Source of the DNA: an uncultured virus (IMG/VR IMGVR_UViG_3300005193_000001)
Taxonomy: Duplodnaviria > Heunggongvirae > Uroviricota > Caudoviricetes
IMG/VR virus record: IMGVR_UViG_3300005193_000001
Span: 124,001 to 188,000 of that record
Strand: one strand, 5' to 3'
DNA length: 64,000 nt
Notes under the pieces: generated by a model
The model's database searches: none
What the model was told of the DNA's origin: nothing
What the model saw: only the letters and a program-made list of their open reading frames with translations
Made by a program: the position numbers and the translations under genes
Shown: positions 33,399 through 47,934 of the stretch, one piece after another
Numbering within the stretch: the stretch's first letter is position 1
Layout: every line of letters begins with the position of its first letter

Positions 33399-33402
33399 AT
33401 TG

Positions 33403-33475
33403 TTGCAGGGAGGGGACTCGAACCCCCAACATGTGGGACATGAATCCACCGTTCTGCCGATTGAACTACCCTGCA
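33403..33475 (-). tRNA. tRNA-Met (CAT)
   Basis: Cloverleaf; anticodon loop TTCATGT. Confidence 0.85.
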
Positions 33476-33486
33476 ATATAACTTTG

Positions 33487-33579
33487 AAACTCGTTGAATT
33501 TCTCCTCCACGAACCCAGAGTCATGACCTCCCATATCTTTCATACGAGTTCTCGCTCTGCCAAACTGAGCTACGGAGCA
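33487..33579 (-). pseudogene. tRNA 5' half (acceptor strand + D-arm) fused to a non-tRNA stem-loop
   Basis: TGCTCCGTAGCTCAGTTTGGCAGAGC followed by a GAACTCGT/ACGAGTTT stem; no intact T-arm or 3' acceptor strand. Confidence 0.5.
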
Positions 33580-33589
33580 TTGTTGAAAG

Positions 33590-33835
33590 TCAATCATCGA
33601 GCTTTTCGAGCGAACCTTCCGGTGGCGTGTTAGGAACTTTGTAGGGATCGTGAGGAGTGGGCTCGGTGTTTCCGTTCAGAGCTTCCTCTAACTTCCTGTC
33701 CCTAATTTCATCCATCTGCTTCCAAGTCAATCGTTGAGTTTCTACACCGAATTCATGAAGCTCGCCATCAACGTAGATGCCCCAACGATAACGATCTCGA
33801 ATGAACCTGCTCCAGACCTTAACGCTTTCCATCAA
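33590..33835 (-). CDS. hypothetical protein
   Basis: ORF coupled to the upstream gene. Confidence 0.5.
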   Translation of the reverse strand: MMESVKVWSRFIRDRYRWGIYVDGELHEFGVETQRLTWKQMDEIRDRKLEEALNGNTEPTPHDPYKVPNTPPEGSLEKLDD

Positions 33836-34155
33836 TCGAGAGAGAACGTGTCAACTTTACGATCTCGCACCTCTTTCGCCCTATCTTCTATGTTGTCCTT
33901 CTTGTCTTCAAAGTCTTTGAAGGCCGGGAACTTGTGCTGCCTACTTGGAACGTGTACTTCTCTTCCATCCAGGAAGAACCCGACGCCATCTTCCCAATCT
34001 CCTCCGATTCTGCCATAGAAAACGGGCTCGTCGTCTATGACATATGAAACGACAGCGGTACAATTTTCCGTTCCCTCTACATGACCCGAAAGTTCTTCGG
34101 ACCACCTGAGATCGGTTCTGGTCTCCCTGTCAAAATTACGATCATGTTCAAACAT
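33832..34155 (-). CDS. hypothetical protein
   Basis: Likely start MFEHDR just after tRNA-Ile. Confidence 0.55.
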   Translation of the reverse strand: MFEHDRNFDRETRTDLRWSEELSGHVEGTENCTAVVSYVIDDEPVFYGRIGGDWEDGVGFFLDGREVHVPSRQHKFPAFKDFEDKKDNIEDRAKEVRDRKVDTFSLD

Positions 34156-34158
34156 AAG

Positions 34159-34232
<74 letters not shown>

Positions 34233-34240
34233 GGATCGAG

Positions 34241-34585
34241 CTAAACTTGGGGCCTATCGTTGTTCTCGATAAAGTGCTTAAACAATCTTCTACCCGCTCT
34301 TTCAGGATTATCGATAGGAACCTCAACGGTGTCGAAGTAATCTCCGTATCTCTCCACTTCAACGTGCATCATGTTCCGAAAAGTGTTAGCGTTATCCGGG
34401 TTCATAACGTTATAGGCGAAGCCTCCATCCATGTAGACCTTGTATCCTTCCGAGAGCTTGTGTTCGACCACGTCTTTAATGTCCTGACCACCGAAGCTAT
34501 CCATTTCTTCGGTAACTTGCTTGGCGTAGTCAATTCCGGTCACTTCAAAGATCATTCTTCTAACCGCTTCTCTCAAATCATTCAT
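34241..34585 (-). CDS. hypothetical protein
   Basis: 114-aa acidic ORF. Confidence 0.6.
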   Translation of the reverse strand: MNDLREAVRRMIFEVTGIDYAKQVTEEMDSFGGQDIKDVVEHKLSEGYKVYMDGGFAYNVMNPDNANTFRNMMHVEVERYGDYFDTVEVPIDNPERAGRRLFKHFIENNDRPQV

Positions 34586-34635
34586 CGAAATCGCTCTGAT
34601 TTAAAGGCCCAATCTTCTAAGGTCAAATAACAGTT

Positions 34636-34729
34636 GTGGGCGATCAGAGATTCGAACTCCGTTAACCAAATTGATGGATTCGAACCATCGTTCACGGTAG
34701 CGAGCCGTGTTCCCAGGATTATCGCCCAT
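34636..34729 (-). ncRNA. tRNA-like RNA with two T-arms (copy B)
   Basis: Acceptor GGGCGAT/ATCGCCC-A; hairpin CACGG-CTCGCTA-CCGTG; GATGG-TTCGAAT-CCATC; CGGAG-TTCGAAT-CTCTG. Confidence 0.75.
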
Positions 34730-34836
34730 ATCTCACGCCTTGTTAAAGAGGGCGTGAGCAAACTCTTGGGCCGCTCTCGATGGAGAGCAAAAGGTCCACC
34801 ACCTCGTTTTTGTAGAAGAACGAGGAAACCTAACTG

Positions 34837-34910
34837 CACCCCCGACGAGATCCGAACTCGCGACCTCTTCCGTGACAGGGAAGCATCCTAGACCACTAGA
34901 CCACGGGGGT
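34837..34910 (-). tRNA. tRNA-Asp (GTC)
   Basis: Cloverleaf; CTTCC-CTGTCAC-GGAAG; G73. Confidence 0.92.
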
Positions 34911-34919
34911 ATAATTATG

Positions 34920-34992
34920 CTCCCCGGAGTGGACTCGAACCACTAACCGCCCGGTTAACAGCCGGGTGCTCTGCCGATTGAGCTACCGAGGA
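34920..34992 (-). tRNA. tRNA-Asn (GTT)
   Basis: Cloverleaf; CCCGG-CTGTTAA-CCGGG. Confidence 0.95.
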
Positions 34993-35186
34993 ATGAAGTT
35001 TTTAGAACCGCTTTCAAGACCCAAAAGCGGTGTGATAACCGCTACCAAATTTCGGTATTTCAATTGTTCTATTGGTCGAGGCAACGTGCTCCCCCGTAAA
35101 GGAAAAGCGCGAAACCACAAACCACGAGAGCGTCAAACAGCATCACGGTTTGCTTGGGTCTGAATGAGAAAGAAAGCGAAAAATAG

Positions 35187-35261
35187 CACGGACGGAAGGA
35201 TTTGAACCCTCGGCACGCGGGTTTGGAATCCGCTGCTCTGACCGACCTGAGCTACGTCCGT
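35187..35261 (-). tRNA. tRNA-Trp (CCA)
   Basis: Cloverleaf; loop TTCCAAA; G73. Confidence 0.92.
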
Positions 35262-35417
35262 ATGATTAGACCCGATTCCTTCTTCAAATGCTTCGTTTCG
35301 GGTCCTATCCAAGTGAAGCAGTCTTGGCGGTTCTAGTCGCAACTATACGCTGATATCGCCCACCTAAAGCTTCATCAACGCTCTGACCGTTGTTAGGGCA
35401 ACGATCAGCAACCTTCT

Positions 35418-35633
35418 TTACTGTTCGGGTTTTTCTATTTGTCCGATCATTTTCTGAAACACGTCAAGCCTTAGATTATCTTCTTCGGTAAGATCTTGAT
35501 TGTCTCCGTTTTTGAGATCTACGTCAGTTACCGAACCATTTTTAAACTTTACGAGGCAGCTATATTCGTGGACCTCGTTCTCTTCTGCTACTTTTGCTGT
35601 GGTAACTTTCCAAATAACGTTTGGACTTGCCAT
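35418..35633 (-). CDS. hypothetical protein
   Basis: 71-aa ORF. Confidence 0.5.
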   Translation of the reverse strand: MASPNVIWKVTTAKVAEENEVHEYSCLVKFKNGSVTDVDLKNGDNQDLTEEDNLRLDVFQKMIGQIEKPEQ

Positions 35634-35667
35634 CTTTTTACAAATTTATTAAAGGTAAATGTTGTTG

Positions 35668-35743
35668 TAGCGGGGGCAGGATTCGAACACTGCGTATGCG
35701 TGGATATGAGCCACGTCTGGAACCAGCCTCCAGTTACCCCGCA
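35668..35743 (-). tRNA. tRNA-Met (CAT), initiator-like
   Basis: TGCGGGG start with unpaired 1:72; CGTGG-CTCATAT-CCACG; one-base bulge in the T-stem. Confidence 0.75.
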
Positions 35744-35748
35744 ATATG

Positions 35749-36153
35749 TTAAACGATCTCTACTTTCGAAGACCTGTCAATGAAGTCGTAGAGATCAACG
35801 TCGTCTCTGATAGCTTTCCCCTCGGCGTCTTGCATCAACACCAAATCGGCTTCACTTTCCCAGACCACGTGTCCAGCCTTTTTCAACTCCTCTTCGGTCT
35901 CGAAGTAAAAGATCTTGCAAATGGGTTCCGAAACGATTCCCGCATGATAGCTATCGAGCTCCGGTCCCTCGTAGTTGATGCCGTTCTCCCGAAATTGCAA
36001 CCTCACATTGTCGGAATCGGGAATAGGAACTTGCAGGTGAAGCCAGTCGTCTTCGATGTAGTGTGGACAGCTGTACTCTACATCTTCGCTATCCTCTTCA
36101 CCGTTTCCGAAGAAGGACCAAATGAACCTCATCATACTCATAAAAGAAACCAT
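35749..36153 (-). CDS. hypothetical protein
   Basis: 134-aa acidic ORF. Confidence 0.55.
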   Translation of the reverse strand: MVSFMSMMRFIWSFFGNGEEDSEDVEYSCPHYIEDDWLHLQVPIPDSDNVRLQFRENGINYEGPELDSYHAGIVSEPICKIFYFETEEELKKAGHVVWESEADLVLMQDAEGKAIRDDVDLYDFIDRSSKVEIV

Positions 36154-36199
36154 TTTTTACAAAGAAACGGTGCTACATCGCTCTCACCTATAAGTATAA

Positions 36200-36347
36200 A
36201 GCGGATTTGAGGAAGCCTCCCGGCTTTCGCCGTCTTCGAAGTCTTGCAGGACCATTCCGTAGCCGGACACTAGTAATCCGTACTCGATCACACTCCTTCC
36301 GACGCTGGCCTTGCGCCTTCCGGAAGCTCACCGAGATTAGGTCCGCT
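36200..36347 (-). ncRNA. candidate structured ncRNA (about 150 nt)
   Basis: Terminal stem AGCGGA/TCCGCT, second stem GAGCTTCC/GGAGGCTT, internal hairpins CGGC-GAAA-GCCG and TCCG-GCTA-CGGA. Confidence 0.55.
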
Positions 36348-36357
36348 CCCTTTTGTG

Positions 36358-36460
36358 TGCTTCTGGTGGGATTTGAACCCACGGCCTCGGGGTCGAGCGC
36401 ACTCGGTCAAGGACCGATTCACGTAGTGCCCCGCGCTCTGCCGAACTGAGCTACAAAAGC
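36358..36460 (-). ncRNA. tRNA body with a 36-nt structured insert in place of the anticodon loop
   Basis: Intact acceptor, D and T arms; CGGGG/CCCCG stem encloses CACTACGTGAATCGGTCCTTGACCGAGTGCGCTCGA. Confidence 0.8.
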
Positions 36461-36479
36461 AAATTTCGCGTGTACCTTC

Positions 36480-36504
36480 AACGAAACCAACGCTTTCTGG
36501 TTTC
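36480..36504 (-). promoter_or_regulatory. promoter motif GAAAC-N16-CGTT
   Basis: 20 nt upstream of the anticodon-insert tRNA-like RNA; preceded by AAGCTTCAT. Confidence 0.65.
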
Positions 36505-36647
36505 ATGAAGCTTTCTTTAATTCTGAGGTCTGTTGAACACGAATCCAGCAATCCACCTGTTGTCGAACATAACATGTGGAAGCTTTTCCGCTGGACCACA
36601 GGTGTTATGAATTCTTACACAAATCTCGACGGCAAGCTCGTTTTGAT

Positions 36648-37295
36648 CTACCATTCAGAAGCAAGTGTTGGTCTGCCGTAGAATCCCGGCTTTCCATTGG
36701 AAATTACATCTTTAATCATCCTTCGGAAATCGACCTCCGTGGCGTCGTTGACGAAATCGGGCATCAATCCATCTAGATCAAGTTCGGACCTGTGGTACTC
36801 GGGACCGAAATTCATGAACGGAGAAAGAAGGCTCTTGAAAAGCGGACTCTTAGCTATGCGCTTTTTTACCGGATTAAGATCGGGGTGTCTGGAAGGTCTC
36901 TCTATGATGTAGACCTCCGCCCCAACGTGCTCCAGAGCAACAAGCTCTTCTTTGAATCTGACGTCGTCCACAACGAACTTGTCGCCGTCCGAATGGCTCA
37001 AACGTAGCAAAAGAGACTTGATCCAAAAAAGCTCTCCAAATTGTTCTCGAAAAAGCTCAGATCCTATTATTTGCATCGCTTCTCTGCGAGAGATATCCCA
37101 AAGGCTGTAAACCTCTTCCTTGTCGATACCCTCGGGAAACCGAAAGGTGGAATCAACTACCTCCTGAATGGGGTCTGCAATTGACACGGTCTCGTATTCC
37201 GAAAGAGCCTCAGCAGCGGTGCTCTTTCCTGCTTGCTTTTTCCCGGCAAATGCTATAATGTCTTTGTCAAGGGGTTTAGGTAAAATGTCGGACAT
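36648..37295 (-). CDS. deoxynucleoside monophosphate kinase
   Basis: GKKQAGKSTAA, ADPI, REAMQIIGSE..R, VVDDVRF..E, HRSE. Confidence 0.88.
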   Translation of the reverse strand: MSDILPKPLDKDIIAFAGKKQAGKSTAAEALSEYETVSIADPIQEVVDSTFRFPEGIDKEEVYSLWDISRREAMQIIGSELFREQFGELFWIKSLLLRLSHSDGDKFVVDDVRFKEELVALEHVGAEVYIIERPSRHPDLNPVKKRIAKSPLFKSLLSPFMNFGPEYHRSELDLDGLMPDFVNDATEVDFRRMIKDVISNGKPGFYGRPTLASEW

Positions 37296-37301
37296 ATTAC
37301 T

Positions 37302-37946
37302 TTATGATAACAGAGTTTCGAAGTGCCTCGTCGATGCCGAATACCCATCCCCGATAAGCTCCGAAAGCCAAAATTCGGTGTGATCTCCGTTGTTCTTTCC
37401 AACGTCTTCCAGGATTCGGAGCTCGTCGGTGAATTGACTCATGGTGTGTTGGCACAACCCGCATGGAGCCACGTCCCCGCTCTGGTCTTGTGGAGAAACG
37501 GCCATGGCGTGAAACTGAGTAGCGCCATTGAACACGGCGTTGAACATAGCCAACATTTCAGCATGTGTGGAGGTAGAACGCCCGGAAACCTCCACGTTAG
37601 CTCCTTTGAAGACGCCTTTGTTGGTCATGACGGCGGCTCCGACTTCGTACTCGCTGTAAGGGGCAAAAGCTCTCGACCGGGCTTCACGAGCATCCTGCAT
37701 CAACTCTTCATCGACCATTCGAAAGTTCCAGTACATTTCTTCCAGAGCATCTTGTATGGCGCTAGAAGGAGATTGACTGGAGGTGCCGAATTGAAGAGGC
37801 CCGTGATCGTCGTGAGGAGTCCAAGACTTCAACCTTCCGTCTATAGACTTTCTGGTATAGGTGTCAGCGACGGCACCTTCTGGAGGGTCTTGAAACTCGA
37901 AAGTCTCTTTCTTAACCGTGTACTCAGTCTTGTCAGTTCTTTGCAT
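37302..37946 (-). CDS. cdd: cytidine deaminase with N-terminal extension
   Basis: AFAPYSEYEVGAAV...GANVE...HAE...PCGLC. Confidence 0.9.
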   Translation of the reverse strand: MQRTDKTEYTVKKETFEFQDPPEGAVADTYTRKSIDGRLKSWTPHDDHGPLQFGTSSQSPSSAIQDALEEMYWNFRMVDEELMQDAREARSRAFAPYSEYEVGAAVMTNKGVFKGANVEVSGRSTSTHAEMLAMFNAVFNGATQFHAMAVSPQDQSGDVAPCGLCQHTMSQFTDELRILEDVGKNNGDHTEFWLSELIGDGYSASTRHFETLLS

Positions 37947-38400
37947 GCTTGGGTCTCCAAATGTGTACGTTATTAGGAAGATGCTCTTCTAAAATAGGTT
38001 TTACGTCTTCAATGTCGCGCCCCCCATTCCCTATCGCAGGAAAGTTAAGATCGAAACGTTTCCAATCGTGCTTGTGGGCTACATCGCCAAGAATCTTCGT
38101 GGATTTCTCCACCAAATCGAGAGGAGAATTGTCTTTAAAGTGCTTTTTGACCTGAAAGGCTACGAGTCTGGAATTGTCAGGATCAAGTGGAAGAACTCCA
38201 TAAAACCCAAGATCTCCGCATTTCTCCTCGATTCTGCTTCCGAACTTCTGATCAACGTCTAAAACCTCGTCTGCGACCTTGGCTATCCCACGACCCATCA
38301 CCAAAGAGCCATCATTTCTGATGAAGCTGTTGGTGGTTATGCAAAACGCGTCGGAGTGTTTGTAGCCGTTCCACATGTTACCGAACTCGTACTCGGGCAT
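37933..38400 (-). CDS. macro domain-like (ADP-ribose-binding) protein
   Basis: ITTN...LVMGRGIA...FQVK.HF...PAIGNGG. Confidence 0.75.
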   Translation of the reverse strand: MPEYEFGNMWNGYKHSDAFCITTNSFIRNDGSLVMGRGIAKVADEVLDVDQKFGSRIEEKCGDLGFYGVLPLDPDNSRLVAFQVKKHFKDNSPLDLVEKSTKILGDVAHKHDWKRFDLNFPAIGNGGRDIEDVKPILEEHLPNNVHIWRPKHAKN

Positions 38401-38403
38401 GAC

Positions 38404-38922
38404 TTATTTAGGCAATTTGGATACTGCGTAAAAGAACACGTCGTGACTAGGGTTTCTGCAAGCTACGACTTCCAAAACGGCAAACGTGCTACTTCGAAAC
38501 CTGTTGAAGTCGATATCGGAGGGGTAGCACATTCCAGTAGGGTGATTGTGAACGACGCCCAAGTACTCTAAAGGACTTAAAGAGCAGTTGGCGTTGTCAA
38601 AAGATCCAAAGCTACCTCCGGACATTTTAACGTCCGGAACCATCAGGCTCTCGACGAAGAGGGTATCACCCTCGTTACGACCATGGAGACAAAAAGGAAA
38701 CTCTGAATTCTGGCTCTTGTAAGCATGTCGCAGAGTTTCCTTCAACCCTTTGCGAAATAAGACTTCTCTATCTCCAGCGGTAAGAACAGAAGTAAAATTA
38801 GAGTCCGGAAGATACGGCGAAGAAGTGCTTTCTTCTCCTTCGTCCATCACGAAGCTATCCATGAAAAAAAGAAGCCCGATGAACGCCAAACAGAAGAGCC
38901 AAAAGGCACGAACGTCCATCAA
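38404..38922 (-). CDS. membrane-anchored JAB/MPN-like metalloprotein
   Basis: N-terminal transmembrane segment; E...GVVHNHPTGMCYPSDID JAMM motif. Confidence 0.7.
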   Translation of the reverse strand: MMDVRAFWLFCLAFIGLLFFMDSFVMDEGEESTSSPYLPDSNFTSVLTAGDREVLFRKGLKETLRHAYKSQNSEFPFCLHGRNEGDTLFVESLMVPDVKMSGGSFGSFDNANCSLSPLEYLGVVHNHPTGMCYPSDIDFNRFRSSTFAVLEVVACRNPSHDVFFYAVSKLPK

Positions 38923-39275
38923 AGTCCGGAGTCTTGGGCTACTTTAATAGCGTGAGAGTCGGTCATAGTACCAACGAGCCCACGTTCTTCCGACCAACCT
39001 TTCACGGCTTCCTCGTCTCCCCAACAACCAACGGGGAAGCAATTGTTCAGGTACATGACAATATCCTCGATTCTATCCGTCATGTGCTGGTCAGCTTTCC
39101 CAACAGCAAGAGAAAGATCGTTAGTGATACAGGCCCACACGAAGCTTCCTTTGCTGGGAAGACGCCCTTGAAGGGCAAACTGCCTCAAGCTCCGAAACAC
39201 GCTGGGGTTCGCCTCTTGGATGCGTCGAGCGTAAGGCTTGCTGGGAACCGTGTTGTAAAACTCGGAAATCGTCAT
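38919..39275 (-). CDS. hypothetical phage protein
   Basis: GSFV.A...NDL..AV..AD...P.GCWG motif. Confidence 0.6.
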   Translation of the reverse strand: MTISEFYNTVPSKPYARRIQEANPSVFRSLRQFALQGRLPSKGSFVWACITNDLSLAVGKADQHMTDRIEDIVMYLNNCFPVGCWGDEEAVKGWSEERGLVGTMTDSHAIKVAQDSGL

Positions 39276-39316
39276 GATGAATAAAAGTTGGGTGGATTTG
39301 AAGTTATCGAGTCGTT

Positions 39317-39781
39317 TTACCCGTCATAAGACTCGGTGTAATCACAATCGGTATCGCCGTACCGGGAACAACCCAGGAACTTACCGTGCTTTCCGCTCCG
39401 AACGCTAAGAGGGGCACCACAATTCCCGCAACGGCCCTCGATCATGTCCTTCCAGTTGGAAAGACGCTTCTTGAGATTCTTCCGCCAAGTCTGGATGCGA
39501 TGAACACGCTTGCTGGAGCCAATGGCTTTCCACTCCGAACCGTCCTTCCACATCAGCACGACGCGAATCGCGTCTTCTCCACTTTCTCGGGACCTTCTAG
39601 TCCTGCTATCGATAGACGAGTAGACTCGAATCATCAGATCTTCACCACCCTTGGTGGAAAACGGGTAATCGTAAATCCGCTCTTTAGCGCTCTTAACGTC
39701 GGTAGAGGGGGTGAAGTCCATTTCCTCGATCAAAAACTCGTCCATTTCGCCTTCCGTGATCTCCGTGTAAGTGGCGGACAT
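39317..39781 (-). CDS. hypothetical protein with C-terminal topoisomerase-type C4 zinc finger
   Basis: CGNCGAPL..RSGKHGKFLGCSRY...CDYT. Confidence 0.75.
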   Translation of the reverse strand: MSATYTEITEGEMDEFLIEEMDFTPSTDVKSAKERIYDYPFSTKGGEDLMIRVYSSIDSRTRRSRESGEDAIRVVLMWKDGSEWKAIGSSKRVHRIQTWRKNLKKRLSNWKDMIEGRCGNCGAPLSVRSGKHGKFLGCSRYGDTDCDYTESYDG

Positions 39782-39823
39782 CTTGTTGGGTGGTGGTCTG
39801 TTTGACTCTATCGCGTTCTTTTT

Positions 39824-39848
39824 TACGTTTCAAGGCACATGGGGTTCC
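39824..39848 (-). promoter_or_regulatory. promoter motif GGAAC-N16-CGTA
   Basis: Intergenic copy. Confidence 0.6.
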
Positions 39849-39881
39849 GCTAGAAAAACGATCTTAACAGAGTCTTCACAG

Positions 39882-40238
39882 CTAAACGGCATCCTTTACA
39901 TACTCCAACTCGTGATATTTTAGGTGAGAAAGAAGATACTCGGTCCTTTCAGCGCTAAACCACTTTTCTAACTGTTCATAAAGCATCTGAAAGGGTTCGC
40001 TTCTTTCGAAGGATCTTTTGCCGTCGCTATCAACAGTTTCTACTCTATGAAATTCAAACGTCTTCGTTCTGTCAGGAATAGTTTCCGTCCAAACCGTAAG
40101 ACCAAAAAGCTCATAGGTCTTCTTGTATTCTCCGAAGTGCAGAATTATTCTATCCCTGTAATCGCTGTAGCCGACTTTAACGGCAGTCACGACTTCATAA
40201 TAATCTATTTGCTTAAGTTTTTCCACCGGAAGTCTCAT
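39882..40238 (-). CDS. hypothetical protein
   Basis: 118-aa ORF. Confidence 0.55.
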   Translation of the reverse strand: MRLPVEKLKQIDYYEVVTAVKVGYSDYRDRIILHFGEYKKTYELFGLTVWTETIPDRTKTFEFHRVETVDSDGKRSFERSEPFQMLYEQLEKWFSAERTEYLLSHLKYHELEYVKDAV

Positions 40239-40264
40239 AACTGATCTTCACTGCTGAATAATAT

Positions 40265-40496
40265 CAAAGGAGAAAAAGCCTGTAGCCCGGATTCTGTTAT
40301 TTCAACCTATCATCTGCCTTTACGCTCCCTACCCACCCATTATCGGTCTGCTCACCACCAAATAGGGCTGTTCGGGATTTCACCCTCTCCGGTTAAGAAC
40401 GAACCTCTCGGTTCTCCCGGATTAGAGCAGAGGTGTCCGGAGCTTCCTCACGAACGACAAAAGCCGAACGTGCGATAGGTCAGCTTCCTTCCTTTG
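40265..40496 (-). ncRNA. rnpB: shortened RNase P RNA
   Basis: P1 CAAAGGAAGGAAGC/GCTTTTTCTCCTTTG; P2 CCTATCG/TGATAGG; P4 5' GAGGAAGCTCCGGAC and 3' ACAGAATCCGGGCTA; internal AGGGTGAAA and GAGCAG elements in the expected order. Confidence 0.85.
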
Positions 40497-40677
40497 AAGG
40501 GTCTTCAAAATTCGAGAGATCCGTGAGGTACCACCAGAGCCGCGCCGTAGGTACAAGAATAGAGATACTGACCAAAAAACCGGACGTAGAGCCTTCTCTG
40601 AAACTGATAGCCGTGTTGACAAAAAGACCAACCACCAACGCGAGATAATAAACTGAAAGTTCTACGCGACTAACCAT
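40480..40677 (-). CDS. small membrane protein
   Basis: Two hydrophobic helices; 3' end overlaps the rnpB P1 5' strand. Confidence 0.5.
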   Translation of the reverse strand: MVSRVELSVYYLALVVGLFVNTAISFREGSTSGFLVSISILVPTARLWWYLTDLSNFEDPSKEGS

Positions 40678-40862
40678 TACGTGGGTTCCGTTTGTGATTT
40701 GAGATCGCTTATGAATTGCTCGATTTCTTCCGAGATTTCCTCCTCACTCGCTTCGTGAAGAAAACCAACGTCCAACATCGCCTGGATCTTCACCTTCTTG
40801 TTAAGTGTGTTAGGGTCGAAAGTCTGGTAAAGGTCGGACTCAACGTCTTCAAAAAGTTGCAT
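40677..40862 (-). CDS. hypothetical protein
   Basis: 61-aa acidic ORF. Confidence 0.5.
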   Translation of the reverse strand: MQLFEDVESDLYQTFDPNTLNKKVKIQAMLDVGFLHEASEEEISEEIEQFISDLKSQTEPT

Positions 40863-40867
40863 ATTAA

Positions 40868-41308
40868 TTACTTTCTTCCAGTGGAACCGAAACCGGAATC
40901 ACCACGCTTCGTGTCCGGAAGTTCTTCTACCTGCTCAATTCCTCCGTCGTAGTAAGGAGAGAACATAATCTGTCCTACCCTTTCTCCGACTTCGTAAATA
41001 TCTCCAGTGGGATCTACCTTGTAAAACCGAAATTGAATGGTCCCCGTGTAATCGGGATCAACGATTCCCGCTGCATTGGCCTGAATGAGCCCTGTTTCCG
41101 AAACGCTGGATCGAGCTCTGGCATCGCCAAAGAACCCGTCAGGGATGTTGAAGGCAACTCCAGTCTCGTACCAGATTTGATGCTCAGTTTCCTTTTGAAT
41201 CTCGGCTGCATAAAGGTCAAAAGCAGCGGCGGTGCTGTATCCCCTCTCTGGAGGTCGTGCGTTCGAATGCGTTAGCTTGTACTGTAGAAGATCATCGTCT
41301 CTGTGCAT
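40868..41308 (-). CDS. dut: dUTPase (trimeric)
   Basis: AAFDL, RSS, GIVDPDYTG, RVGQ, RGDSGFGSTG. Confidence 0.95.
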   Translation of the reverse strand: MHRDDDLLQYKLTHSNARPPERGYSTAAAFDLYAAEIQKETEHQIWYETGVAFNIPDGFFGDARARSSVSETGLIQANAAGIVDPDYTGTIQFRFYKVDPTGDIYEVGERVGQIMFSPYYDGGIEQVEELPDTKRGDSGFGSTGRK

Positions 41309-41345
41309 GTAATCTATTGAAAAGCATTAAGAATTCAGGGTCTTC

Positions 41346-41669
41346 TCACGAAATTCGTTCGACAGAATAGACCGAGTTCATGGTCTCGATCACTACCTCT
41401 TTCTCGCCACGTTCTTCGACGTTCTGAACGGGTGAAGTCTCCATAACGCCTTGAATAGGCTCGCCGTTCCTCTCATGCCCGTCAATGATCATGGGCATGT
41501 CTTCCACGATGCTGTGTACGAGGCGACCTTGAACTGCGTAATCGACTGGTAGAGATTTTTGGGGATTCCCGGAGCCGTGATCGTGTTCTTCCCAAGATGG
41601 AGTCTCGTGTTCCGGGTTTTTCGAGGTATCGACTTTGACGGCGGAGACCTTAGTTCCCTTGTCAAACAT
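41346..41669 (-). CDS. hypothetical protein
   Basis: 107 aa; TSPV...ETMNSVY. Confidence 0.6.
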   Translation of the reverse strand: MFDKGTKVSAVKVDTSKNPEHETPSWEEHDHGSGNPQKSLPVDYAVQGRLVHSIVEDMPMIIDGHERNGEPIQGVMETSPVQNVEERGEKEVVIETMNSVYSVERIS

Positions 41670-41687
41670 GAAGAAATTAAAGACTTG

Positions 41688-41915
41688 TTAGCAAGAACCG
41701 AACTTGTAAGAAATGAAGCTCTTGGGCGGATCGTCGTCTCGGACAATGAAACCGAGATCATCGAGCCTTTCCTTGTCTTCATCGCTCACTTCATCGGGAT
41801 GAACGCCACACACAAAAAGCACGTCATGTTCACAGTGAAAAGGGGCGTACTGGTCGTCGTTGTATTTCTGGAAAATTTGGCAAGCCTTCGCCATGTCTCC
41901 GAACCCGTCAGACAT
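41688..41915 (-). CDS. hypothetical phage protein
   Basis: IFQKY...PFHCEHDVLFV...VSDED..RL.DLGF. Confidence 0.6.
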   Translation of the reverse strand: MSDGFGDMAKACQIFQKYNDDQYAPFHCEHDVLFVCGVHPDEVSDEDKERLDDLGFIVRDDDPPKSFISYKFGSC

Positions 41916-41950
41916 ATCGGACCAAAAGCGGTCAATAATAAAGAATCGAG

Positions 41951-42024
41951 TGGAGGTGAAGGGATTTGAACCCCCGACTTCCGCCGTGCAAAAGCGGTGC
42001 TCTACCAAACTGAGCTACACCCCC
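41951..42024 (-). tRNA. tRNA-Ala (TGC)
   Basis: Cloverleaf; G3:U70; loop TTTGCAC. Confidence 0.95.
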
Positions 42025-42174
42025 TGGCGAGTATTTGTATAGCGCTCTCAAGCGCTCAGGCGGAGAGGCTATCTCCACCGCTCTGTCCTTTTTTATTTTC
42101 GGGTCCGTACAGCCGCGACCCGGCTACTAATCGATAGCTACCTTCCGGCTGGTAAACCACGACTTTCACGTCAG

Positions 42175-42261
42175 TACCGATGGAGGGACTCGAACCCACA
42201 CGGCATATTTCAGCCACTGCGCCCTCAACGCAGCGCGTCTACCAGATTCCGCCACATCGGC
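42175..42261 (-). tRNA. tRNA-Leu (GAG)
   Basis: Class II cloverleaf; CTGCG-TTGAGGG-CGCAG. Confidence 0.93.
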
Positions 42262-42422
42262 TTATGTGTCTTCGTCACCGGACGACTTGAAATCTTCCTC
42301 AAGCTCTTCTCCGTCCCCACGAACGATAACGTGATTTTCCGACTTTCTGACCACCTGAGGAGGATGATCCATTCGGTTGTCGTCCAATTTGTCCAAAACG
42401 TCGAGTATCTTCTTCATAAATG

Positions 42423-42497
42423 TCCCCCCGACTGGACTCGAACCAACAACTCACCAGCCTTCGCAGGGCTGGGCTCTTCCAGTTGAGCTACGGGGGA
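42423..42497 (-). tRNA. tRNA-Arg (GCG)
   Basis: Cloverleaf; CAGCC-CTGCGAA-GGCTG. Confidence 0.9.
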
Positions 42498-42500
42498 ATG

Positions 42501-42525
42501 AACAAAGGAACGAAAAGCCTGTTCC
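42501..42525 (-). promoter_or_regulatory. promoter motif GGAAC-N16-TGTT
   Basis: Immediately upstream of tRNA-Arg(GCG); preceded by AAGCTTCAT. Confidence 0.6.
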
Positions 42526-42544
42526 ATGAAGCTTCGGTAAAAAG

Positions 42545-42617
42545 TGGAGCAGAAGGGAATCGAACCCCCAACATCGACGCTGCCAGCGTCACGTTCTACC
42601 GATTGAACTACTACCCC
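42545..42617 (-). tRNA. tRNA-Ala (GGC)
   Basis: Cloverleaf; G3:U70; loop CTGGCAG. Confidence 0.92.
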
Positions 42618-42623
42618 AAACAG

Positions 42624-42696
42624 AGCGGCAGGAGGCAGTCGAAGCCTCAACATCGACCTTGGAAGGGTCGCGCTCTGCCACTTGAGCTACTGCCGC
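42624..42696 (-). tRNA. tRNA-Gly (TCC)
   Basis: Cloverleaf; CGACC-CTTCCAA-GGTCG; U73. Confidence 0.92.
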
Positions 42697-42722
42697 TTGT
42701 GCAAAAAGTAGATATAAAGTCG

Positions 42723-42920
42723 TTAAGCGGCGTCCCGAACCTTCTGGTACTGAGTCTCGGGCTCGTTGCCGAGAAAACCCGTAAGAAGATAAAGGCCCAT
42801 GTCGTGTGCAACTCTCTGCACGCTCCTGGCACTACTCATGTCGGCACGCCCGGATTCTCGAACGACCTCGTATTCACTCAATATCCTTTCTTTTCTCTCT
42901 TCGGACTCGAAATCTTTCAT
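42723..42920 (-). CDS. hypothetical protein
   Basis: 65-aa ORF between tRNAs. Confidence 0.55.
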   Translation of the reverse strand: MKDFESEERKERILSEYEVVRESGRADMSSARSVQRVAHDMGLYLLTGFLGNEPETQYQKVRDAA

Positions 42921-42945
42921 GTCGATTCTGATCTATATGTTCTAG

Positions 42946-43020
42946 TAGGGGCGGTAGGACTCGAACCCACGTATCTTCCAGTTATAAGCCGGACGCCTTC
43001 ACCAACTTGGCCACGCCCCT
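42946..43020 (-). tRNA. tRNA-Ile (TAT)
   Basis: Cloverleaf; TCCGG-CTTATAA-CTGGA; A73. Confidence 0.9.
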
Positions 43021-43037
43021 GTGCGAAGTTAAATATG

Positions 43038-43295
43038 TCAAGAAAGAGGCTTCCAGTCTTCGCTCTCTCGATCCCAATGTCTAACGTCGTAAAAAGAGAG
43101 TATGTAATCTTCCGATGGAGTCCGAAGCATCAGAGTAACTCCAGCGTGATCCATCCTCCTCTTGATCTTGACGTCGAAGCTATAAGTCAGGATACGGTCG
43201 GCCTCGCTAACGTCACCAGTAGGGACTCTTTCAAGCTCCAGAGCCTTCTTGCCCCAAAGCTTAAAGCCTTTGCACCAGTGATCTTCATGATTCAT
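43038..43295 (-). CDS. hypothetical protein
   Basis: ORF coupled to the upstream gene. Confidence 0.5.
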   Translation of the reverse strand: MNHEDHWCKGFKLWGKKALELERVPTGDVSEADRILTYSFDVKIKRRMDHAGVTLMLRTPSEDYILSFYDVRHWDRESEDWKPLS

Positions 43296-43510
43296 AGCTC
43301 TTCGGGATCAATGACATTAATTTCCTCCGAATCCGAAGCGATCTCGACCTCATCTTCGTAATCTTCCTTTACCTCTTCCCAATCCTCCGGGCCAATGCCC
43401 AAGGCTTGATCAATGAGAAAGTTGACCTTAGGATCGGAAGTCATAGGGGGCCAATCGTAGAAGTACTCGTTGTTAACAAGCTCTTCGGCGTCTTCTACGG
43501 TCTCAATCAC
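43292..43510 (-). CDS. hypothetical protein
   Basis: Acidic ORF. Confidence 0.5.
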   Translation of the reverse strand: MIETVEDAEELVNNEYFYDWPPMTSDPKVNFLIDQALGIGPEDWEEVKEDYEDEVEIASDSEEINVIDPEEL

Positions 43511-43563
43511 GGCACGAAGTAGATGTTGTTAAACTTTCGCGGACTACATTAAACGGAGACTCG

Positions 43564-43863
43564 CTATTTTTGTTCCGAGTCTTTGTTAAAGTCCAGTGAA
43601 GACAGGTCCGCGCTCGCGTGAACCTCTATCCTGTGTGAACCGTCTCTGTACTTCCCGACATTCGAGTATCGAACCTGCTCCACTCGAAGGTCAACAGTAT
43701 CGCCTTCGTAGTCTTCGTTTCTCGGATTGACCGTGCTTCTTAAGTGGAAGTCAGAAATGACTTCGCCTTTGCGAGGAATACACAGCATATCGGTATAGTA
43801 ATCCTCGGCAAACCCGTCAATGTCGAATTTGATCTCGTAAACAGTAGTATATTTCTTCGGCAT
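43564..43863 (-). CDS. hypothetical protein
   Basis: 99-aa ORF. Confidence 0.55.
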   Translation of the reverse strand: MPKKYTTVYEIKFDIDGFAEDYYTDMLCIPRKGEVISDFHLRSTVNPRNEDYEGDTVDLRVEQVRYSNVGKYRDGSHRIEVHASADLSSLDFNKDSEQK

Positions 43864-43867
43864 AGAA

Positions 43868-44230
43868 CTAGTATCTGTTGAAAAGGTTCTTCTTCGGCGT
43901 CCGGTCTTCCATCGTTTGGATCAATTCCGTGACGGTCAGACCGTCTAGCCACGAGCAGTGCTTCTCCAAAAGATGCGCGTTCTTGGGATCGTCGAGATCG
44001 ACCATGCCCTCGTTGCCCATGACCTCGAAGCCGCATTGAAAACCAGCTACTTTGGTGGCCTTGTCGAAATCGTCTTCCAGATTAGAGTCGTCAATGCTTT
44101 CCTCCATCTTGTCGATGGACTCACTGAGGTTGTCAAGATCCGTTTCCGGACCACCAGCGCACCCATAGACGACAACGGCGAAAAGAAGAAGGAGCGAAAA
44201 TCCGAGACTAACTAAATCAGAACCGCGCAT
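43868..44230 (-). CDS. putative lipoprotein
   Basis: Hydrophobic leader ending VVYG-C. Confidence 0.6.
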   Translation of the reverse strand: MRGSDLVSLGFSLLLLFAVVVYGCAGGPETDLDNLSESIDKMEESIDDSNLEDDFDKATKVAGFQCGFEVMGNEGMVDLDDPKNAHLLEKHCSWLDGLTVTELIQTMEDRTPKKNLFNRY

Positions 44231-44261
44231 ATAAATTATCCGCTTTGTTGTTGAAAATTAG

Positions 44262-44422
44262 CGACGACGGCGAGACTTGAACCCGCATGCACGCCCCGCT
44301 AAGTGACGTACATTTTAGGAGGCTATCCTATTTGCGCCGAAACACCGTGGCTAACGGCTTCGGGTTAGAGGGTCCCCCCTAACCGCTGGCGGCGATTACC
44401 GATTGCTCGCCACACGCCATCG
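44262..44422 (-). ncRNA. 160-nt tRNA-like RNA with multiple inserted hairpins
   Basis: 8-bp acceptor CGATGGCG/CGTCGTCG, D-like arm TGGCGA/TCGCCG, T-arm GCGGG-TTCAAGT-CTCGC, four internal hairpins; promoter-like motif at 44441-44465. Confidence 0.7.
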
Positions 44423-44440
44423 TAAAGTAACGCCCTTCGA

Positions 44441-44465
44441 AACGGGATCAAGAAACGGACGTTTC
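44441..44465 (-). promoter_or_regulatory. promoter motif GAAAC-N16-CGTT
   Basis: 19 nt upstream of the 160-nt tRNA-like RNA; preceded by AAGCTTCAT. Confidence 0.65.
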
Positions 44466-44480
44466 ATGAAGCTTTCTTAA

Positions 44481-44656
44481 ACACCCACGGCCAACGGCGG
44501 AAACCGTTGGCCGGGTTCGGGGTCTAACCGAACAATGGAAGCTGGGTGCAGTCCTTTTACATCCTTCCAGGCGTAGGTATCGGCTGGCGCTTTCACCAGA
44601 TCCATTTGTCGCTGGTACCCCTACGCGTTGCAGCGCTCGCTCCCATTCGTGGGTGC
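44481..44656 (-). ncRNA. candidate multibranch ncRNA (about 175 nt)
   Basis: Terminal stem GCACCCACG/CGTGGGTGT; arms GCGTAGG/CCTACGC, GTTCGG/CCGAAC, CGGCCAACGG/CCGTTGGCCG. Confidence 0.6.
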
Positions 44657-44663
44657 TAACAGG

Positions 44664-44921
44664 TCACCATGTGATGTAAAGATGTCTAACCTTACCGTCA
44701 GGAGACCTCGAAACTTCAGTTTCGAACCCAAGAACCCGCATATCTTCTCGAATCTCTTCAACCTTGTCCCAACCCCTGTCAACGTGCACTCTGCAATAGT
44801 CGTAGTCGTTAAGTGCATATCGTCTCACGCAGTCGGTAACGTATTCACCCAAATCCATGTCTTCCATGGAAAGGTCATTAGCCTCCTGAGCCGATATGTT
44901 TACACTGAGGTTGTTCGACAT
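44664..44921 (-). CDS. hypothetical protein
   Basis: 85-aa ORF. Confidence 0.5.
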   Translation of the reverse strand: MSNNLSVNISAQEANDLSMEDMDLGEYVTDCVRRYALNDYDYCRVHVDRGWDKVEEIREDMRVLGFETEVSRSPDGKVRHLYITW

Positions 44922-45445
44922 ACTGTAACTGGAAGTTCAACGCTTGTGTTAAATTCTGCAGCGGCTTTTACGGCACGCTGAGCCAATTTGACGGGATTAT
45001 CTTCTTTCATAGCAGCCATAGCCCCATAAGCCTCTCTCGCTCCAGTTCCGAGGGCGAAGAAGGGTTGATCAAAACGAATGACGGAAAAGTCCTTCTGAAC
45101 TTTGAATATTTTGTTCTTGACGGCCAGAAGAAACATTCCTCCTTCTTTTCTGTTGTTTTTTATCTTCGTAAAGCCCTTGCTTTCTAAAACGTGTCGGATC
45201 TTAGGAAGGAGAACGTCTATGGCGTAGAACCTTTCGCTTTCCGAATTTATATCGGGAGGACACAAATGGTGCTCCAAGATTTGACCCATCCTGAAACTCG
45301 TCGTATACCCCAAAGCCAACTCAATGCCATCGAATTTAAGAACCTTACTATTCCGAGACTTTCTCGTGTGATGGTTGCCCACACAGGCCGAGTCTCCAGC
45401 CAAAATAGCACCGGGATCCGATTCCACTCCTACAATACAGGTCAT
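44900..45445 (-). CDS. Ntn-hydrolase peptidase (HslV/proteasome-beta-like)
   Basis: N-terminal M-T-CIVG...AGDS, SKV, ALGTG...AYGAM. Confidence 0.8.
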   Translation of the reverse strand: MTCIVGVESDPGAILAGDSACVGNHHTRKSRNSKVLKFDGIELALGYTTSFRMGQILEHHLCPPDINSESERFYAIDVLLPKIRHVLESKGFTKIKNNRKEGGMFLLAVKNKIFKVQKDFSVIRFDQPFFALGTGAREAYGAMAAMKEDNPVKLAQRAVKAAAEFNTSVELPVTVCRTTSV

Positions 45446-45936
45446 CGTACGATACTTTCTATTTTTCTACAATCCTTTGCCGTTATGCCAACTGAAGGGT
45501 CCGTCTTGACGAAGTTGCTTTTGTGTCCGACTTTAGCACCGGGATTGTCGTCCACCACGACGTAATCTTCCTCCAGCCCCACGTCGGAAGCTTCTCTATG
45601 AAGCCACCGAGATATTACGGCCCCACGAGTGTCACTCTCTCCAAGCCCCCACGCCGAAATCTGTCGAGGTCCGGTAGTATCGACGACGGGACAGTTGTAC
45701 CAACCGTAGAGAGCCATAATGGAGGCCAATTTCTCCGGGCCGTGTCCCTGTCTCCAAGAACTCGACCACACGACGTGAAACCCCATCCTGTCAACTACGG
45801 TTCGAACGAGCCCAATCCTAACAGGGTCGAGCCTCCATGGACGACGGGCGGAACCGTAGCCCTCGAAGGCTCTACAAGAGTCCGAAGAATTCAGAACTCC
45901 ATCTACGTCAAGAAAAAGAAGGGGCGGTTTACTCAT
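45442..45936 (-). CDS. HAD-family phosphatase (Swiss-army-knife RNA-repair type)
   Basis: LFLDVDGVLN, VWSSSWR, RG..I..WL, YVVVDD. Confidence 0.85.
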   Translation of the reverse strand: MSKPPLLFLDVDGVLNSSDSCRAFEGYGSARRPWRLDPVRIGLVRTVVDRMGFHVVWSSSWRQGHGPEKLASIMALYGWYNCPVVDTTGPRQISAWGLGESDTRGAVISRWLHREASDVGLEEDYVVVDDNPGAKVGHKSNFVKTDPSVGITAKDCRKIESIVR

Positions 45937-46120
45937 CGTACACGTCGGTTTCGGCTTTCGTGGCTCGTCCAGACGTGGACGCGCTAAACTTGTCACTTAC
46001 GTCCGCTCTGGTTTCTCCATCTTCGAGCACAACGAACTGGTGAGGCTCGTAACTGGAGGGTTGCATGATGATGAAGTCCGCTCCGGGAGGAACGTCTTCG
46101 AAATCGATGTACAAATCCAT
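45929..46120 (-). CDS. hypothetical protein
   Basis: 63-aa ORF coupled to the HAD gene. Confidence 0.45.
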   Translation of the reverse strand: MDLYIDFEDVPPGADFIIMQPSSYEPHQFVVLEDGETRADVSDKFSASTSGRATKAETDVYDE

Positions 46121-46191
46121 CGTGACTTAAAGGTTGATGCTTGGTGTTGCGGATGGACTTGAACTTGAAAGAAATGCGTCGGGTTCTTCCT

Positions 46192-46410
46192 TCATTTACG
46201 CTTCACAGAAGGAGGAGGGACCGTATAGAGCGGAAGAGGAATCGGATAGTTCTCACGAAGCTCCGTTCTATCGAGAAAATCGGACATAGGAACGGTTCGG
46301 CCTTGATCGTGGTGTCTTTTGGCGGATTTCACTCGGGCCATAACGTCTTCTTCACCAAGTCCGAAGTACTCGTTTCGAATGTGATTTGGAAGGTCGTCAG
46401 GACTTTTCAT
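46192..46410 (-). CDS. hypothetical protein
   Basis: Likely start MKSPDD. Confidence 0.45.
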   Translation of the reverse strand: MKSPDDLPNHIRNEYFGLGEEDVMARVKSAKRHHDQGRTVPMSDFLDRTELRENYPIPLPLYTVPPPSVKRK

Positions 46411-46879
46411 CTGCGTGCTTGGATATGACTTTGTTAATGTGTTCGTCGTGGATGGACCCCAATCTCTTAACTTCACGTCCAAGATCAACGTCTAACGTTC
46501 CTTCGGGGCCATGAAAAGCCCACTCGTGACCAAAAAGCCTGTCGAAAACGAACCCACCGTCTTTCCACTCTATGATAGCGATACCTCCAGAGTAGTCGTG
46601 AATCAACTGCTCCGGGTCTTCGACGTCCGCTGGAGTTCCATGCTCTTCGTACTCGCGGCGTTGTGTCTCGGCGCTCGTGTCCTTAACGCGCTTCACAACG
46701 TCTCCTTCCCACAGACTCTCCTCGTTCATATCTGACCACCCGGTAAACCAAGAAATCTCGTACCTGCTTTCGGAAAGGTCGGGAAGGTCTTCCTGAGAAA
46801 GTTGTTGTATATGAGCCTCCAAGACGAACTCGTAAGAGAGGACGTCAAACACCCTTAATTTACTTGGAAAGCTGCTCAT
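46397..46879 (-). CDS. YopX-family protein
   Basis: KLRVFD...FTGWSDMNEESLWEGDVV...LGSIHD. Confidence 0.7.
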   Translation of the reverse strand: MSSFPSKLRVFDVLSYEFVLEAHIQQLSQEDLPDLSESRYEISWFTGWSDMNEESLWEGDVVKRVKDTSAETQRREYEEHGTPADVEDPEQLIHDYSGGIAIIEWKDGGFVFDRLFGHEWAFHGPEGTLDVDLGREVKRLGSIHDEHINKVISKHADEKS

Positions 46880-47161
46880 AATTAGGCAAGATTTCGTTGG
46901 AGGAGTTCCAGACAAACCTGTAGTAGCCCTTAATGTTGAAGTCGCCTCCACCTTTAAGGTAAGAAAGGTAATCGCTGGCGAATCTCTATCCGAGGACATT
47001 GTTGCCAATGTGAATATCTTCTCCCCCAAGACCACTGAGTTCCGAAAGCTCATATTCAAGCCCGTCGATCATCGACTCCTTACGAAAATCGGACATCTTG
47101 TAGTCGTCGGGAAATTCCTCATTCGTAGAAGTGTAAGCAGTGACCCCAGAATTGCTCATAA

Positions 47162-47389
47162 TTAATTGACATTTAAAAAGTCGGAACGCGAATCTATGAT
47201 TTCCACGATATCGTTTCTGACCCTTCTTCCGTAAGCCCCGTTATCGTAGAGGTCGTCGGCAAGGTTCCGAAGACCACTAAGGGTAGATACAGGATAGCCA
47301 TACTTGTTCAAGTCCATAGAATCTCCGTTCTCATCGACCCTACGTATAGTGAGGTCGTCAAAGTCTATCTTGAAAGAGTCTACAGTCAT
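47162..47389 (-). CDS. hypothetical protein
   Basis: 75-aa ORF. Confidence 0.5.
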   Translation of the reverse strand: MTVDSFKIDFDDLTIRRVDENGDSMDLNKYGYPVSTLSGLRNLADDLYDNGAYGRRVRNDIVEIIDSRSDFLNVN

Positions 47390-47932: not shown

Positions 47933-47934
47933 AT

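Follow-up and report, generated by a model that had tools for sequence, protein, structure and literature searches.

A predicted catalytic-domain-only RNase P RNA gene of bacterial type in the tRNA region of a T4-like phage

RNase P RNA is the ribozyme that trims the 5′ end of new tRNAs and, to our knowledge, it has been treated as a universal and strictly cellular gene. Here, we describe a phage-borne RNase P RNA of bacterial type that is reduced to its catalytic domain and that homology, a structure map and covariation indicate to be a real gene. It measures 232 nt between the outer ends of P1 and occupies positions 40265..40496 on the minus strand of the window, the 64,000-nt stretch of DNA analysed in this study (bases 124001-188000 of a 263,015-bp IMG/VR virus record). 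We consider it probable (roughly 70 %) that this sequence specifies a functional minimal RNase P RNA, encoded by the phage and derived from bacterial type A. All elements of the RNA described below lie on the minus strand, and RNA positions are counted from window position 40496, which is position 1.

Using E-value thresholds over the interval 39900-40900, we obtained a match to the bacterial model RF00010 (RNaseP_bact_a) at 40267-40491 (minus strand; model positions 1-367, 63.2 bits, E value 1.1e-18) in which the P4 core is aligned, and a genome-wide search returned it as the single RF00010 match across the 263,015-bp record (E value 6.8e-20). This is the covariance-model check that a previous sequence-only reading of the locus had proposed. 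The archaeal model RF00373 gave no match at the locus, and the best model of the Rfam clan for the phage RNA is the bacterial RF00010. The score lies below the RF00010 gathering score of 100, and a search of the 64-kb window at Rfam gathering thresholds returned 34 matches to tRNA but none to RNase P. By its E value the RF00010 match is far beyond chance, and the alignment identifies the predicted RNA as a true homologue of bacterial type A RNase P RNA. No ORF of at least 40 aa spans the gene; three short ORFs overlap its 5′ part only, two of which were scanned and showed no family match.

The sequence-only reading had recognized P1, P2, P3 and both P4 strands, all of which are borne out by the structure map, in which P1-P5 and P15-P17 can be written with standard pairs, as can all 70 pairs of the fold. 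The ends that it had assigned, 40265 and 40496, are the exact outer ends of P1, a helix of 16 pairs (40481..40496 with 40265-40282; RNA 1-16/215-232) interrupted by two bulges, G217 and C225. P1 was located independently in each of the eight relatives that we describe below and displays two-sided changes in 15 of its 16 pairs across the resulting nine-sequence alignment, to which the following counts also refer. P2 (5′ strand ACCUAUC; 40474..40480 with 40305-40311; RNA 17-23/186-192) comprises seven pairs, five of them with two-sided changes, and the P3 hairpin (40449..40472; RNA 25-34/39-48) consists of two 4-bp segments separated by a U.U/U.U internal loop and capped by a UUUU loop, with two-sided changes in 7/8 pairs. 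The 5′ strand of P4 follows J3/4 within GAGGAAGCUCCGG (CR-I; 40437..40449), carries a bulged U at 40441 (U56) and pairs through 40437-40444 with 40284-40290 (RNA 53-60/207-213); the 3′ strand is preceded by J2/4 within ACAGAAUCCGGGCUA (CR-V; 40283..40297), a placement supported by the Rfam alignment, the structure map and covariation. The two motifs from which P4 had been recognized, GAGGAAGCTCCGGAC at 40449-40435 and ACAGAATCCGGGCTA at 40297-40283 on the minus strand, are thus both present. As in type A RNAs, P4 forms a pseudoknot with a bulged U, flanked by CR-I (GAGGAA..UCC) and CR-V (ACAGAA..CGG..UA), and the P1-P2-P3 framework is accompanied by a CR-IV-like J15/2 linker (ending in AGGCAGAUG; 40312..40325).

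The arm that carries P15, P16 and P17 (40326..40377) is also of type A form. P15 (40374-40377/40326-40329; RNA 120-123/168-171), P16 (40365-40368/40335-40338; RNA 129-132/159-162) and P17 (40357-40360/40344-40347; RNA 137-140/150-153) each show two-sided changes in three of four pairs. J16/15 contains the GGU (40331..40333; RNA 164-166) that in type A RNase P RNAs binds the 3′ CCA of the tRNA, and G164, G165 and T166 are invariant in the nine-sequence alignment. The loop of P17 participates in the P6 pseudoknot, in which CUGCUC (40425..40430) pairs with GAGCAG (40348-40353; RNA 67-72/144-149). GAGCAG had been noticed in the sequence-only reading under another label; the element is present and is the L17 strand of P6, pairing with CUGCUC at RNA 67-72. 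Similarly, AGGGTGAAA is present as described, but the Rfam and family alignments place it in the 3′ strand of P5 (GGUG) and J5/15, not in the specificity domain.

The remnant of the specificity domain is enclosed by P5 (40381..40435 in all), a helix of four pairs (40432-40435 with 40381-40384; RNA 62-65/113-116) that is 100 % paired, with two-sided changes in three. Within it, P7 (40417-40421 with 40388-40392; RNA 76-80/105-109; 100 % paired, two-sided changes in 4/5 pairs), a lone hairpin with a GAGA loop (40401-40414; RNA 83-87/92-96; two-sided changes in 4/5 pairs) and the 8-nt 3′ strand that follows it (40388..40421 together) are all that remains of P7-P14. Since it comes after P7, the lone hairpin would correspond to P8; it carries a GNRA loop (GAGA or GAAA) in four of the nine members. 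Two features of type A RNAs are therefore wanting, namely most of the specificity domain, where 140 model positions for P7-P14 are reduced to 44 nt, and P18, which is absent beside the J15/2 linker and whose 23 model positions in the RF00010 alignment correspond to 1 nt. These figures agree with the strong shortening that had been reported from the letters alone. The catalytic core has lost none of its conserved blocks, namely CR-I, the bulged U, CR-IV, CR-V and the GGU, and as read from the alignment and the structure map the catalytic domain is complete, with P1-P5, the P4 and P6 pseudoknots, P15-P17 and the GGU. An unconstrained fold recovers P1, P3, P4, P5, P7, the hairpin and P15-P17. Its minimum free energy (-77.9 kcal/mol, z = -1.34) is unremarkable against shuffles, 17/200 of which fold at least equally well, and the case for the RNA therefore rests on homology and covariation.

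Relatives were sought with an exact-motif pattern consisting of the two P4 motifs at shortened spacing. Among viral contigs, a P4 spacing of 120-150 nt returned three loci, all of which are RF00010 matches (63.5-118.5 bits), and a spacing of 150-180 nt returned eight, again all RF00010 matches (49.7-136.2 bits); each of these 11 shortened RNAs has a tRNA within 300 nt. Two viral loci with a spacing of 89-119 nt (L014 and L015) had no RF00010 match at E ≤ 0.001 and were rejected. The same scan gave 35 loci in metagenome contigs and 22 in prokaryote genomes (185,579 species), none of the latter with a tRNA in its flanks (0/22). A covariance model (R1) derived solely from the window's sequence, which contains the nested helices and not P4 or P6, matched 24/35 metagenome loci, 8/13 viral loci and 4/22 prokaryote loci, among which only L059 from a member of the Shapirobacteria (CPR) matched well (37.2 bits). 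Within the reach of an exact-motif pattern, short forms of RNase P RNA often accompany phage tRNAs and are very seldom found in cells. Other searches returned nothing further: 50,697 phage records queried by BLASTn with 39000-42000 gave no match, and no close relatives of the phage were found through its Dda-like helicase. One viral locus (L002) contains an exact copy of an 18-mer from the P4 region, but it lies in GC-rich DNA, lacks any Rfam match and was rejected as a chance match; six viral loci retrieved with a signature of the P4 end, the P6 strand and L17 (L087-L092) had neither an R1 match nor a tRNA and were therefore taken as chance.

Eight of the metagenome loci (L039, L024, L038, L020, L021, L046, L031 and L034) share the window's exact architecture, together with a 'GGAG' after P7 and a GGUGAGCAG loop, and form a subfamily with it; tRNA genes lie within 400 nt of five of the eight. 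A further metagenome contig of 3 kb (L050) is 100 % identical to the window. RF00010 scores of 50.9-77.9 bits were obtained for six of the eight relatives; of the other two, one was matched best by RF00373 and one was not matched, so that none reaches the RF00010 gathering score and all nine members lie below the threshold. The window's subfamily is among the most reduced. The other viral short forms resemble it in being RF00010 matches of 207-269 nt that lie on large viral contigs and always beside tRNA genes, but most keep more of the specificity domain, and one (L004) lacks P15-P17 while possessing P18. A T4-type capsid gene, which the phage described here encodes, was found in none of the five other RNase P RNA-bearing viral records checked, so that these are other phage lineages. 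Separately, a brine run (X1) contains short contigs, 90-95 % alike, that match only over the P4 strands (40281-40313 and 40414-40466) at a depth of 12-25; these are probably the conserved cores of RNase P RNAs from other organisms in the same sample.

To assess the fold, nine sequences (the window's RNA, represented by L050, and the eight relatives) were fitted to R1, against which they score 43-112 bits, and P4 and P6 were added by hand. Paired cells account for 94.5 % of 548, compared with 68.0 ± 1.4 % in shuffles; two-sided changes occur in 50/70 pairs, compared with 31.7 ± 3.1; and the covariation score is 0.592, compared with 0.171. Not one of 500 shuffles reached any of the five covariation measures, and sliding the 3′ partners by 1-3 columns left only 36-46 % of cells paired. 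All 12 helices contain at least one pair with two-sided changes. The set is small (nine sequences), and the nested helices in these counts belonged to the model that made the alignment. The two pseudoknots lie outside R1, yet P4 is 100 % paired, with two of its seven pairs compensatory (AU 5/GC 4 and CG 7/GC 2), and P6 is 100 % paired in the six sequences aligned there, its first pair being CG in four, AU in one and UA in one. L046, L031 and L034 are gapped at P6 in this alignment; by eye, the P6 strands of L046 are the same, while those of L034 and L031 are different but complementary. Taken as a whole, the covariation shows that the reduced fold is under selection.

These data bear directly on the idea that the locus is the decaying relic of a fragment of host rnpB acquired by the phage. 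The large deletions relative to cellular forms and the score below the gathering threshold would suit such a history, but the deletions cleanly remove entire structural modules, no remaining helix is broken and the reduced architecture is kept through compensatory changes in eight diverged relatives, whose spread over 43-112 bits argues against one recent clone. We therefore regard decay as highly improbable.

Besides the other viral short forms, four groups of RNAs offer points of comparison. With cellular type A RNA (rnpB/M1 RNA; RF00010), the phage RNA shares an end-to-end match, P1-P5, P4 with its bulged U, P6, P15-P17 with the GGU, and CR-I, CR-IV and CR-V; it differs in its length (232 nt versus a 367-position model), in lacking P8-P14, with their conserved T-loop-binding joints, and P18, in its score below the gathering threshold, and in belonging to a phage whose genome holds no rnpA. 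The sequence-only reading had likened the RNA to the shortened forms of Pyrobaculum, a comparison that is apt as an analogy, although the phage RNA derives from bacterial type A. According to the accessible part of PMC3579882, the type T RNAs of the Thermoproteaceae (Pyrobaculum, Caldivirga and Vulcanisaeta) are natural RNAs derived from archaeal type A that keep the catalytic domain and are missing the greater part of the specificity domain, with a P2 of 3 bp and a P5/P15 linker of 2 nt. The phage RNA likewise keeps the one and lacks most of the other, but its P2 has 7 bp, its P5/P15 linker has 3 nt (A117-A119), it fits the bacterial model best while RF00373 is silent at the locus, and it is viral, whereas type T RNAs are cellular and work with archaeal proteins.

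Diverged bacterial RNAs provide the third comparison. Lui et al. 2021 (PMC8172020) describe RNase P RNAs of CPR bacteria that fall short of Rfam thresholds and from which P12, P13, P14 and P18 are missing, the loss of P12 being otherwise known only in Mycoplasma fermentans and the Thermoproteaceae; some lack the 3′-CCA-binding motif (written there as UGG) or P15. The phage RNA resembles them in its bacterial character, its sub-threshold Rfam score and its loss of P12-P14 and P18, and L059 is one such short form. The phage RNA differs in that it keeps the GGU and P15-P17, and in that the CPR RNAs are cellular, each being its organism's only RNase P RNA. The L059 RNA itself (L059:365-584; 220 nt) has a similarly short P4 spacing and scores best on the archaeal model, at 103.8 bits, which is above threshold.

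The fourth comparison is with a laboratory construct. According to Mao et al. 2018 (PMC5839562), the catalytic domain of the E. coli RNA retains activity by itself, at reduced efficiency, whether or not the C5 protein is present; this domain needs a P6-type interaction and can dispense with P18 (which contacts P8), and engineered catalytic-domain-only RNAs are much less efficient. The engineered E. coli RNA, insofar as that text describes it, lacks the specificity domain and has kept and lost the same parts as the phage RNA, although it is a laboratory deletion of a cellular RNA, whereas the phage RNA is a natural gene, known by its sequence, that selection has kept. By this comparison, the parts kept and lost in the phage RNA match the laboratory deletion results available from PMC5839562. 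The parts shed would be those that serve only the specificity domain, namely P8-P14, which read the T-loop, and P18, which bridges to P8.

The genome that carries the gene is that of a T4-like myovirus, whose DNA comes from brine metagenomes and whose 263,015-bp record is rated complete by CheckV. It encodes a Gp23 major capsid protein (E value 4e-81), a Gp20 portal, a T4-type terminase, an S77 prohead protease, gp25, a baseplate wedge and a sheath, in line with the earlier view that the RNA is phage-encoded. Two of its helicase genes contain domains of the intein or homing-endonuclease type: the DnaB-like helicase (G000 21720-24158; L075:4720-7158) contains Hint and LAGLIDADG domains, and an SNF2-family helicase (G000 73116-75959; L078:5116-7959) contains an intein splicing domain and a LAGLIDADG domain. 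The genome also contains 47 tRNA genes, all on one strand, 46 of which lie between 151,425 and 197,997 of the record; together, they serve all 20 amino acids, and one has a CUA anticodon. In the window, the tRNA region (27425..64000; 34 tRNA genes) lies on the minus strand, the same strand as the RNase P RNA gene, which is located inside it with the nearest tRNAs 1.45 kb upstream and 5 kb downstream. It is flanked upstream by a dUTPase gene and two small ORFs, and downstream by an ORF of 118 aa.

Several observations on the tRNA genes themselves were made in passing. The CUA-anticodon tRNA (27425-27500, minus strand) is labelled 'Pyl' by ARAGORN and is a possible amber suppressor; TAG ends 77 of 388 ORFs in a crude set, long ORFs are open under code 11 and no sign of recoding was seen. 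A 103-nt Rfam tRNA match at 36358-36460 (minus strand; 55.7 bits) is absent from the ARAGORN list and possibly represents a tRNA that contains an insertion or intron, while the ARAGORN tRNAs at 34836-34910 and 61262-61333 are missing from the Rfam gathering list.

The absence of rnpA from the window, which the sequence-only reading had noted, extends to the whole phage genome: PF00825 gave no match at E ≤ 1, while the same search was positive in 10 control genomes, and rnpA was likewise found in none of the five other viral records carrying an RNase P RNA. We considered the flanking ORFs as a new protein cofactor and rejected them, as the predicted products have pI values of 5.6 (118 aa), 4.7 (65 aa) and 4.1 (61 aa); these ORFs returned no Pfam, PHROG or NCBIfam match, and no tblastn match was found beside the relatives. 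Since the phage encodes no such protein, the partner of the RNA would be the host's. The phage encodes bS21 (L079:14806-15045) and IF-1 (L075:10908-11123), both above NCBIfam cut-offs, and a peptide deformylase (window 24857-25465), pointing to a bacterial host and hence to a partner of the RnpA type. With Cpn10, DnaJ and Hsp20, which are also encoded, these proteins make up a broad translation and folding kit.

The lack of rnpA could also be read as evidence for a protein-free ribozyme, with the high ionic strength of a halophile's cytoplasm replacing both the protein and the lost domain, the second of the two options that the sequence-only reading had offered. The origin of the DNA in brine metagenomes, the absence of rnpA from this phage and from all five other RNase P RNA-bearing viral records, and a moderately acidic phage proteome (median pI 5.1; D+E 16.4 % versus K+R 11.5 %) are all compatible with this, and the accessible text of PMC5839562 reports that a Pyrococcus furiosus catalytic domain without P18 is active in vitro without specificity domain or protein. 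However, bS21, IF-1 and the deformylase indicate a bacterial host, in which RnpA would be available, and the absence of rnpA fits the borrowing of a host protein equally well. We judge protein-free operation to be unlikely and favour assembly with the RnpA of a bacterial host as the most likely arrangement.

What the RNA would act on is suggested by its surroundings. Acting with host RnpA, it would cleave the 5′ leaders off phage pre-tRNAs during infection. Eight tRNA pairs lie only 4-12 nt apart, so that one 5′ cut would also free the short trailer of the upstream tRNA. The base preceding the tRNA is a G in only two of the 47 genes. At the other end, CCA is encoded in three tRNA genes and absent from 44/47, and the phage encodes a 386-aa protein of the PolyA_pol family whose best matches are CCA tRNA nucleotidyltransferase models (E value 2e-54, 185 bits, compared with an equivalog cut-off of 290 bits). 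A PolyA_pol-type nucleotidyltransferase is present in four of the five other viral records, a count that covers RNase P RNA-bearing records only and has no base rate. Genes for RNA repair include three RNA ligases and 2H and HAD 'Swiss Army Knife' domains. A Thg1-family tRNA-His guanylyltransferase is encoded at G000 78994-79800 (L078:10994-11800, minus strand; PF04446, E value 3.9e-30, plus Thg1C; no NCBIfam match) but was found in none of the five other viral records carrying RNase P RNA, which speaks against a general link between the two. We suggest that the RNase P RNA would form part of a tRNA maturation and repair kit of the phage, together with the CCA-adding-type nucleotidyltransferase, Thg1 and the RNA ligases.

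Thg1 adds G-1 to tRNA-His in eukaryotes and archaea. The phage tRNA-His gene (53675-53748, minus strand) follows the bacterial arrangement, with G-1 encoded (53748) and C73 as the discriminator. A more speculative proposal, to which we would give only a rather small chance, is that the phage runs a tRNA 5′-end pathway of its own that is unlike the host's: a catalytic-domain-only ribozyme without a phage protein, and possibly with no protein at all in a salty cytoplasm, would cut tRNA-His at +1 because it lacks the specificity domain, thereby removing G-1, which Thg1 would then restore. If this were true, such a pathway and the CCA-adding-type enzyme would make the maturation of the 47 tRNAs largely independent of the host.

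Transcription signals were examined with a simple scan, which detected no promoter-like site directly upstream of the gene on the minus strand (the nearest being at 41025-40997) and no terminator-like site behind it; the scan counts are at shuffle level (promoter-like, 5 versus 2.6 ± 2.1; terminator-like, 2 versus 2.8 ± 1.8). A run that is labelled metatranscriptomic but is 'probably DNA' contains a 184-nt contig at 40298-40481, inside the gene, and, at other places in the 6 kb examined, two more short contigs like it, so that it cannot be taken as a sign of expression; no RNA run was listed as containing the stretch. We infer that the RNase P RNA, whose strand is that of the 47 tRNA genes, would be transcribed with the tRNA region, after which the catalytic domain (P1-P5 and P15-P17) would fold and be locked by the P4 and P6 pseudoknots. 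In one viral contig (L005, minus strand), the RNase P RNA (281-501) abuts tRNAs at 500-572 and 212-283, such that ordinary tRNA end-processing would excise it, its 3′ end being made by RNase P itself.

A further reading is that the RNA is active as RNase P but mainly serves purposes other than cutting tRNA leaders, for example cleavage at tRNA-like structures in polycistronic phage transcripts, or its own release and that of its neighbours from long transcripts. For such a role, one could cite that the scan showed neither a promoter nor a terminator belonging to it, that cleavage at the ends of the flanking tRNAs would release the RNase P RNA in L005 and that the loss of the T-loop-reading domain may relax substrate choice. 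In the window, though, the nearest tRNAs are 1.45 kb and 5 kb away, and 47 tRNAs are obvious and abundant substrates, leaving this explanation improbable.

We also weighed whether the RNA might be a decoy or regulator, binding host RnpA or pre-tRNAs to no useful catalytic effect and thereby diverting host tRNA maturation in favour of the phage. In bacterial holoenzymes, RnpA is bound by the catalytic domain, which is the part retained here, and the specificity domain, on which efficient recognition of tRNA depends, has been lost, both as a decoy would allow. A sponge, on the other hand, needs none of the core elements (the bulged U of P4, CR-IV, CR-V and the GGU) that are invariant or compensated in the diverged relatives, and the phage invests in 47 tRNAs that need 5′ processing. 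A decoy is, in our estimation, very unlikely, and 5′ processing of the phage's own pre-tRNAs is the role that we prefer.

A full-text literature search, with subscription journals outside its scope, found no paper on a phage-encoded RNase P RNA, and a 2024 review of RNase P mentions phages, in its accessible part, only as sources of substrates (PMC11143913). Routine annotation misses genes of this kind, all nine members of the subfamily lying below the Rfam threshold. A natural RNA of bacterial type that consists of the catalytic domain only and is maintained by selection in phages would show nature's minimal working RNase P, and it offers a small and tractable ribozyme for studying substrate recognition without T-loop reading, as well as a system in which to ask whether a foreign RNA borrows host RnpA. 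For the phage, the finding would add 5′-end processing to a takeover of translation that already comprises tRNAs, CCA addition, tRNA repair, bS21 and IF-1.
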